The position numbers were made by a program, and so were the translations under genes. From Escherichia coli (GTDB lineage: Bacteria > Pseudomonadota > Gammaproteobacteria > Enterobacterales > Enterobacteriaceae), in assembly GCF_044324875.1 (NCBI RefSeq), contig NZ_CP172185.1: a stretch of DNA of 64,000 nt; one strand, written 5' to 3'. Below the pieces are notes generated by a model, which was given only the letters and a program-made list of their open reading frames with translations, did no database searches and was not told the DNA's origin. Positions 13,742 to 62,321 of this stretch are shown one piece after another; the stretch's first letter is position 1; each line of letters begins with the position of its first letter.

Positions 13742-14155
<414 letters not shown>

Positions 14156-14463
14156 TTATTCAGCCTCCTGTCTGGGTCAGCCGAATCCCGGGGAGGCAAG
14201 GAACGTGTTAAAGGTCGGCTGAAAAATGACGCGTTATAGTACTGACATACCCCGCTAAACTCAAGGCCAGCCGACAAATAAATCTCATCTTTCACCAAAT
14301 CGTACTAACACGCTGATTTGAAGTTCATCACACTTCATCATGGTGTTTTTTTGAACAACTGCATCAGAAATGGTCACCATCAACTTCTTTATCATTGATT
14401 AAAATTAAATCAGAAGATCATCACAGAGGAGAGCACACAAAGTCAGCCGTTGAGGAGGTATCT

Positions 14464-46507: not shown

Positions 46508-46583
<76 letters not shown>

Positions 46584-46618
46584 TTGGGTGGTCTGTGCTT
46601 TACAGCACTTTCAAATTT

Positions 46619-46694
<76 letters not shown>

Positions 46695-46851
46695 TTAATC
46701 TTCGTCTTTCGAACCGCTACTGCCTTGGCTGCCTTCACTCACCTTAGTCACTTACTTTTGTAAGCTCCCAAGGATTCGTTCAGTTGCCGCCTTGTCGCAA
46801 TTCGAAATACTGCGATTGGGTGGTCTGTGCTTTGCAGCACTTTTCAAATTT

Positions 46852-46927
<76 letters not shown>

Positions 46928-59655: not shown

Positions 59656-61211
<1,556 letters not shown>

Positions 61212-61299: not shown

Positions 61300-61833
61300 A
61301 TGCGCCTGCTCCCTCTCGTTGCCGCAGCGACAGCTGCATTTCTGGTCGTTGCCTGCAGTTCTCCTACGCCGCCCCGTGGCGTGACAGTAGTGAATAATTT
61401 CGATGCTAAACGCTATCTCGGTACCTGGTATGAGATTGCCCGTTTTGATCACCGCTTTGAACGTGGACTGGAAAAAGTCACCGCAACATACAGCCTGCGG
61501 GATGACGGCGGCCTGAATGTCATTAATAAAGGCTATAACCCTGACAGAGAAATGTGGCAGCAGAGTGAAGGGAAAGCGTACTTTACCGGCGCACCAACTC
61601 GCGCTGCGCTGAAAGTGTCATTCTTTGGTCCTTTCTATGGCGGTTATAACGTTATTGCACTCGATCGGGAATACCGCCATGCGCTGGTTTGCGGCCCGGA
61701 CCGCGACTACCTGTGGATACTCTCCCGCACGCCAACCATTTCTGACGAAGTGAAACAGGAGATGCTGGCAGTCGCGACCCGGGAAGGGTTTGATGTCAGT
61801 AAGTTTATTTGGGTACAGCAGCCCGGTAGTTAG
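61300..61833 (+). CDS. blc: Outer-membrane lipocalin Blc
   Basis: 177 aa, lipobox VVACSS, lipocalin motif GTWYEIAR. Confidence 0.95.
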
Positions 61834-62147
61834 TGAGTGCTGAGTTTCAGACCAATAATCCCCAATACGATTAACGCCAGACTCGCCAGGCGCATCGGGT
61901 TAGCGGACTCGCCGAGCAGCACAATGCCGGTGATGGCCGCGCCGACTGCGCCAATACCCGTCCACACGGCATAAGCCGTCCCTACTGGTAACGATTTCAT
62001 CGCCCAGGCAAGTAGCGCCATACTGACAATCATCGCCGTCACAGTAATAACACTTGGCGTCAAACGACTAAAGCCGTGGGTATATTTCAGGCCAACGGCC
62101 CATACCACTTCCAGCAGACCAGCAATAACTAAGATAATCCAGGACAT
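61830..62147 (-). CDS. sugE: SMR-family guanidinium exporter Gdx (SugE)
   Basis: Track ORF 61830..62210; start at [22 protein letters not shown] gives 105 aa; four-TM SMR protein with the conserved Glu in TM1. Confidence 0.93.
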
Positions 62148-62165
62148 ATCAGGCTCCGGAGAATT

Positions 62166-62210
62166 GGGGCCGTCCCCGGTGAAAAGAGGCGTTTGCAGGT
62201 CGTCCTGCAA
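62166..62210 (-). ncRNA. Guanidine-II riboswitch (mini-ykkC) in the sugE 5' leader
   Basis: On the minus-strand transcript: two short GC hairpins with ACGR tetraloops, ttgcagg-ACGA-cctgcaa and gggg-ACGG-cccc, separated by about 10 nt and ending about 20 nt before the sugE ATG. Confidence 0.8.
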
Positions 62211-62321
62211 AGCTGATGGTTGAACGGATATTTTGCCAGGTGGCAGGGGAATTTCAACTATTACCTTTGTGACTATCGCAAAAAAACAAACGGCACGACA
62301 TAACTGTCGTACCGTTATTGC

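Follow-up and report, generated by a model that had tools for sequence, protein, structure and literature searches.

The window analysed here, 64,000 nucleotides of Escherichia coli DNA (contig NZ_CP172185.1), contains the gene series epmB, efp, ecnA, ecnB, sugE/gdx, blc and ampC. The leader of gdx carries two ACGR-capped hairpins, termed P1 and P2, that are joined by a linker and followed by a Shine-Dalgarno (SD) sequence (Table 1). Over the 801 bases around this site, many E. coli chromosomes show 100% identity, and the region occurs in 5425 of the 5426 complete E. coli genomes; the leader matches that of K-12 MG1655 base for base. Neither the K-12 record (NC_000913.3, 4376700-4376875) nor the PGAP-annotated record NZ_CP032515.1 lists a riboswitch or other regulatory feature at the site; both carry CDS features only. 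Thus, the earlier note was right that annotation overlooks the RNA element described here.

A consensus scan places a predicted promoter upstream of P1, which would put the gdx transcript start approximately 10-15 nt 5' of this hairpin. Both the -35 and the -10 blocks are kept in the Citrobacter-type plasmid copy of the locus; the flanks diverge. The spacer of the predicted promoter includes a perfect 12-bp palindrome, TGCCACCTGGCA (62234..62245, minus strand), which lies within a larger inverted repeat, GTTGAA...TTCAAC (62258..62219), and which is not conserved in the Citrobacter-type copy on pSN254. Farther upstream, the ecnB stop codon is located just before a terminator-like hairpin, which appears to close the ecnB unit and to mark the 5' boundary of the gdx unit. 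Two positions around the loop of this hairpin distinguish the window (ACAGUUAUGU) from K-12 (ACAGCUGUGU), and the window also has one U fewer in the U-run.

Table 1. Features of the gdx leader and its surroundings, in window coordinates.
Feature	Position	Strand	Description and basis
Terminator-like hairpin and U-run	62289..62316	minus	12-bp stem followed by TGTTTTTTTG; consensus scan
Predicted sigma-70 promoter	62230..62257	minus	TTGAAA-16 nt-(TG)CAAAAT; consensus scan
P1 hairpin	62192..62211	minus	8-bp stem UUUGCAGG/CCUGCAAA, ACGA loop 62203..62200; Rfam alignment
Linker CGCCUCUUUUCACC	62178..62191	minus	14 nt between P1 and P2; Rfam alignment
P2 hairpin	62166..62177	minus	4-bp stem GGGG/CCCC, ACGG loop 62173..62170; Rfam alignment
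AAUUCUCC	between P2 and GGAG	minus	sequence reading
Shine-Dalgarno GGAG	62154..62157	minus	6 nt 5' of the ATG with CCUGAU between; present in pSN254
Spurious 21-codon extension	62148..62210	minus	program ORF from the TTG in the P1 5' strand; noncoding
gdx (sugE) CDS	61830..62147	minus	105 aa plus stop, ATG 62147..62145; WP_000118482.1, NP_418572.4

The earlier note proposed a guanidine-II (mini-ykkC) riboswitch in the sugE/gdx leader, composed of two minus-strand hairpins with ACGA and ACGG loops, and suggested an Rfam scan as the check. Both hairpins are present where it placed them (62211..62192 and 62177..62166), and its range of 62148..62232 covers the whole aptamer, the SD and approximately 21 nt 5' of P1. 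The Guanidine-II model of Rfam 15 (RF01068) aligns over its full length (model positions 1-48 of 48) with 62211..62165 on the minus strand at 50.4 bits, compared with a gathering score of 32. The corresponding E-values are 2.4e-8 in a 3-kb search and 5.2e-7 for the whole 64-kb window, where this is the sole riboswitch match at the gathering score. The whole-window scan also returned an RpsF leader (14135..14219, minus strand, 110.1 bits) and three tandem tRNA genes (46511..46927, minus strand, 69.1 bits each), which are ordinary chromosomal features. Matches to RT-17 and CRISPR-DR20 were rejected as chance, with E-values of 7-9 and scores far under the gathering score.

Structurally, both hairpins are of the GG-ACGR-CC type, with GG-ACGA-CC in P1 and GG-ACGG-CC in P2. 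A single GGACGRCC is unremarkable by itself (three in the window versus 3.46 expected), and it is the tandem arrangement GGACGRCC-N10-40-GGACGRCC that stands out, with one occurrence versus 0.01 expected from shuffles. When folded alone, the 47-nt aptamer forms exactly P1 and P2 at -17.4 kcal/mol (z = -2.78), and none of 200 shuffled sequences is equally stable. At 14 nt, the linker is long enough for the loops to kiss head to head; most guanidine-II linkers have at least 13 nt (PMC5486947). The P2 hairpin ends 8 nt before the GGAG and 18 nt before the gdx ATG; the SD of the gdx leader is marked in a published drawing (PMC13064478, Fig. 1).

Comparative sequence analysis began from a Gdx protein scan restricted to one genome per species, which gave 80 homologue loci. 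A guanidine-II element is located directly upstream in 44 of these. Among the 20 best-ranked loci (71-90% protein identity), 19 retain upstream DNA and all 19 carry the element; the top-ranked carriers are Enterobacter, Citrobacter, Pluralibacter, Shimwellia, Hafnia, Serratia, Providencia, Budvicia and Photorhabdus, and Yersinia (L031) also has guanidine-II upstream of gdx. The other 36 of the 80 loci (L032-L090) have no guanidine riboswitch of any class within 600 nt at the gathering score. The same is true of all eight distant plasmid SMR homologues (L003-L010). Distant plasmid homologues from Sulfitobacter, Rahnella, Acinetobacter, Paracoccus, an Enterobacter IncF plasmid, Agrobacterium and Ensifer, none of which matched Rfam, added nothing to the comparison.

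For 43 distinct leaders, P1 and P2 were stacked with the invariant loops as anchors. Standard pairs occupy 89.2% of the stem cells compared with 65.9% in shuffles, a percentage that is biased upward because the leaders were chosen by their match to Rfam. Many distinct pair types occur at seven of the eight P1 positions, an observation that is unaffected by this selection. Compensatory changes on both sides are found at 11 of the 14 stem pairs and at 7 of 8 in P1, and the covariation score is 0.620 versus 0.178 for shuffles and at most 0.205 when the 3' partner is slid by 1-3 columns. Across 46 leaders, the P1/P2 loop pairs are ACGA/ACGA in 27, ACGA/ACGG in 14 (as here) and ACGG/ACGA in five; the loop-to-loop distance is 25-35 nt, and the linker sequence is not conserved. 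A further copy of the locus is the Citrobacter-type blaCMY-2-blc-sugE module found on IncC and other plasmids, represented by pSN254 (NC_009140.1), which has the same gene order and a riboswitch scoring 47.2 bits. Its P1 and P2 are identical to those of the E. coli chromosomal copy, and therefore it adds no covariation and is informative only for the frame test described below. Its linker is 1 nt shorter and has one substitution, the tail before the SD reads UUGUUCU rather than AUUCUCC, and its Gdx protein is 82.9% identical to that of E. coli.

Eight Mesorhizobium leaders (L059, L060, L065, L073, L075, L078, L080 and L085, at about 530-606) have a different spacing. In them, 48-70 nt separate the P2 loop from the start codon, compared with 17-32 nt in Enterobacterales, and an extra, variable hairpin, GCAUC...GAUGC, is present between the aptamer and the SD. 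These leaders may carry a variant expression platform.

The passing of the Rfam gathering score, the covarying stems in gdx relatives and the identity of the sequence to an aptamer already studied by crystallography, NMR and FRET together support the assignment. We therefore conclude, with a probability of about 0.95, that the element upstream of gdx is the E. coli gdx (sugE) guanidine-II riboswitch, as the earlier note had claimed. This identity is already known, and the gdx guanidine-II element is so well studied that nothing in the assignment is new. The mini-ykkC motif was described in 2007 and has been in Rfam since, and its ligand was identified in 2017.

This exact sequence has been characterised in published work, and reviews name E. 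coli as a standard host of guanidine-II (PMC12186494). The construct named 'E. coli P1_8bp' was crystallised with guanidine (PDB 5NDI) as the oligonucleotide UUUGCAGGACGACCUG(BrC)AAA (PMC5486947), whose sequence, UUUGCAGGACGACCUGCAAA, corresponds to P1 at 62211..62192 of the window. The E. coli sugE aptamer has also been examined by NMR and SAXS, in which a 49-mer (Gdn49) had a KD of 130 uM and the strong site was ACGA in P1; ACGG in P2 alone bound no guanidinium (PMC9300104). By single-molecule FRET, a 47-mer from E. coli undergoes kissing in cis that depends on both ligand and Mg (PMC9094411). In vivo, guanidinium enhances gdx-dependent phenotypes including Cs+ resistance, and in strain ZX-1 a 20-bp deletion, CCGGGGACGGCCCCAAUUCU, removes P2 and is credited by the authors for strong constitutive gdx expression (PMC13064478). 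The ZX-1 deletion corresponds to 62179..62160 or 62177..62158 of the window, which are equivalent through a CC repeat. The evidence for its effect consists of RNA-seq and phenotype, which gauge translation only indirectly, and gdx mRNA, not protein alone, is raised in the deletion strain (PMC13064478).

For the family as a whole, one guanidinium is taken up per ACGR loop, two C-G pairs make the kissing contact between the loops, and these RNAs turn on the translation of guanidine detoxification genes (PMC5558903, PMC5486947, PMC12186494). The gdx leader of approximately 75 nt most likely operates as a translational ON switch built from its two ACGR-capped hairpins, each loop of which can take up one guanidinium ion. 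Ligand and Mg2+ favour a P1-P2 loop-loop kiss through two C-G pairs, which would lock both hairpins and keep a masking segment from pairing with the ribosome-binding site. This would free GGAG and the start AUG (62147), so that the 105-aa Gdx guanidinium/H+ antiporter is made. The sequence, family membership, stem covariation, linkage to gdx and correct start codon of this model are direct observations of the present analysis. For this exact sequence, the literature shows that guanidinium is bound, that the loops kiss both in cis and in trans, that gdx is induced in vivo and that its expression becomes constitutive upon P2 deletion (PMC5486947, PMC9300104, PMC9094411, PMC13064478).

The segment that masks the SD is the least certain part of this model. 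We put roughly even odds on P2, which would be metastable and would mask the SD with its C-rich 3' strand. When the leader is folded, the free ensemble has pairing probabilities of approximately 0.99 for P1 and 0.1-0.2 for P2. In the minimum-energy fold, C62169, C62167 and C62166 of P2 are paired with G62154, G62156 and G62157 of the SD, G62171 and G62170 of the P2 loop are paired with C62152 and C62153, and G62176..C62172 are paired with U62141..G62145, which include the G of the AUG. Forcing P1 and P2 to form together costs only 1.1-1.5 kcal/mol in these calculations, which a kiss stabilised by ligand may plausibly cover. Among the 44 leaders, 21 have the P2 3' strand as the best predicted partner of the SD, although base composition accounts for part of the match between a C-rich P2 strand and a G-rich SD, and this match, with both sides invariant, lies beyond what covariation can test. 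In the eight Mesorhizobium leaders the SD lies 30-50 nt further downstream, and the consensus fold still pairs it with the P2 3' strand.

A different masking segment has been drawn for E. coli (Fig. 1A of PMC9300104 and Fig. 1A of PMC9094411), in which the linker CCUCU at 62189-62185 acts as the anti-SD, the kiss draws the linker off the SD, and P2 is stable in both states. A pyrimidine-rich UCU motif does recur in enterobacterial linkers, and in five of the 44 leaders the SD has the linker as its best predicted partner. However, only four pairs are possible (CUCU with GGAG, one of them G-U), and these are absent from the predicted ensemble. Moreover, a common E. coli allele, C62188G, abolishes one of the four, and the ZX-1 deletion spares both the linker and the SD and yet results in constitutive expression (PMC13064478). 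We consider masking by the linker rather unlikely, and other arrangements less likely still. Because the ZX-1 deletion keeps linker and SD, loses P2 and is nevertheless constitutive, and because C62188G weakens linker pairing, the P2 strand is the better fit to the available observations.

Calculated energies do not separate these two proposals. By nearest-neighbour folding, opening the ribosome-binding site costs nearly the same for the free leader (8.5 kcal/mol), the leader with P1 and P2 locked (8.2 kcal/mol) and the ZX-1 deletion (7.7 kcal/mol). Likewise, locking P1 and P2 across the 44 leaders opened the SD in 11 and closed it in 10. Given these similar opening costs and the lack of a consistent effect of locking, secondary-structure energetics confirm no masking model. 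Stated more generally, P2 may be weak by design and repress expression through its C-rich 3' strand rather than through the linker, not only in E. coli but also in many further guanidine-II leaders, and loss of P2 would then unmask the SD; this is a tentative idea that may well prove wrong.

A second alternative concerns the kiss itself, in that two mRNAs might dimerise through P1-P1' kissing in place of the intramolecular P1-P2 contact, with P2 and its weaker ACGG loop serving only to tune the response. NMR, DOSY and SAXS data on the 49-mer point in this direction, as they reveal ligand-induced intermolecular P1-P1' association and no guanidinium shifts in P2 (PMC9300104). Those P1-P1' experiments used high RNA concentrations, however, whereas FRET recorded from individual immobilised molecules detected kissing in cis (PMC9094411). 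The comparative data likewise argue for a role of both loops, each of which is ACGR in all 46 leaders with none having ACGG in both, and deletion of P2 changes expression (PMC13064478). We regard control by dimerisation as improbable.

Even less probable is control by transcriptional attenuation, with P1 and the U-rich linker acting as an intrinsic terminator. The consensus scan does mark P1 plus CGCCTCTTTT as terminator-like, and the elevated gdx mRNA of the ZX-1 deletion strain could be read in the same way (PMC13064478). However, such terminator-like matches are as frequent in shuffles (two found, 1.4 expected), and the U-run begins 6 nt past the stem and is missing from the linkers of many relatives, such as cgcatcaatcat and cgcatcactca. 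Stabilisation of P1 by ligand would turn expression off, which is opposite to the reported induction, and the ZX-1 deletion leaves P1 and the U-run whole and yet mRNA rises. This reading was rejected on two grounds, the poor conservation of the U-run and the wrong direction of control.

The gene under control is, by its protein sequence, the SMR guanidinium exporter Gdx/SugE. The protein matches the NCBIfam SugE equivalog NF008512 at 193.5 bits (cut-off 126), with residues 1-104 on profile positions 1-104 of 104, and all Qac and EmrE models fall far under their cut-offs. The K-12 RefSeq record names the gene gdx and its 105-aa product 'guanidinium exporter'. The closest solved structure is Gdx-Clo (PDB 6WK5), which aligns from residues 1-103 to 1-103 with E = 1.5e-32. 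The profile and the RefSeq name agree with the earlier note's description of the downstream gene.

The program-made ORF begins at a TTG at 62210, the second base of P1, and encodes 126 aa rather than the 105 aa that follow from the ATG at 62147. As the earlier note had argued, this start is over-extended. No purine-rich stretch that could serve as an SD precedes the TTG in GUUCAACCAUCAGCU. In addition, the nucleotides of P1, linker and P2 are almost unchanged in pSN254, but the 1-nt linker deletion shifts the frame of the extension and yields a different peptide, which places the conservation at the RNA level and not at the protein level. Among the 46 leaders, an in-frame start at -63 occurs in this sequence only, 12 have an in-frame stop between the P1 5' end and the start codon, and 18 have no upstream in-frame start at all. 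In all 46 the N-terminus M/V-(S/A/T/P)-W is found at the same position. With the alignments to both NF008512 and Gdx-Clo beginning at residue 1 of the 105-aa protein, there is no room for 21 extra residues, and RefSeq gives 105 aa in the PGAP and the K-12 annotation alike. The true gdx start is the ATG at 62147, and the extension from 62210 is an artefact. That the 126-aa ORF is instead a real gene with coincidental hairpins in its coding sequence is scarcely credible: the reading frame is uninterrupted from 62210 here, but the start lacks an SD and is unique here, the frame is broken in pSN254 and interrupted or without a start in the relatives noted above, and the family profile, the crystal structures and RefSeq all begin with the 105-aa protein. 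A second over-extended start is present nearby, where the program ORF for ampC (59883..61211, plus strand) runs into the frdD-ampC intergenic region and encodes 442 aa from a GTG compared with 377 aa (1134 nt) in RefSeq.

Approximately 42% of genomes differ from the window leader at 1-4 of 86 positions, and the common E. coli polymorphisms are located outside the stems and loops, as with C62188G in the linker (O157 AR-0429, CFT073) and C62161U just before the SD (CFT073). The 86-nt leader match is lacking in 14 of the 5426 genomes, and six more match over less than 80% of its length. One urinary clinical isolate, E. coli strain 167 (NZ_CM132950.1, L092:2486-2580), carries a 29-nt deletion corresponding to 62190..62162 of the window. 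The deletion spares the SD and ATG, takes the whole of P2 and AAUU together with most of the linker, and is flanked by CTC microhomologies. It resembles the 20-bp laboratory deletion of ZX-1. If the C-rich strand of P2 is indeed the repressing element, spontaneous P2 deletions such as that of strain 167 would be natural constitutive alleles of gdx, possibly selected by biocides or cations.

As a discovery the riboswitch carries little weight, because the exact E. coli sequence is a structural-biology model. The case is of use in that a small cis-regulatory RNA was recognised from raw sequence, at a place where gene calls that favour the longest ORF run through such RNAs and have here added 21 spurious codons.

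Compared with known systems, the element is identical in sequence and architecture to the E. coli sugE/gdx guanidine-II representative studied as the 5NDI P1 hairpin, Gdn49 and the 47-mer, with no difference found. Guanidine-I (ykkC), guanidine-III and guanidine-IV riboswitches respond to the same ligand and often precede the same gene family, gdx (PMC5558903, PMC12186494), and none of the three is present at the gathering score in the window or upstream of the 80 homologue loci. Their folds are unrelated to that of guanidine-II; classes I and IV are transcriptional and class III is a pseudoknot. The guanidine-II RNA from P. aeruginosa (PDB 5VJ9) belongs to the same class, with tandem ACGR hairpins before a SugE-like gene and a proposed function as a translational ON switch (PMC5558903). 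Its two loops are identical to each other, whereas E. coli pairs ACGA with ACGG, and its proposed anti-SD consists of the linker and the 5' side of P1 (PMC5558903), whereas folding of the E. coli leader favours the 3' strand of P2.
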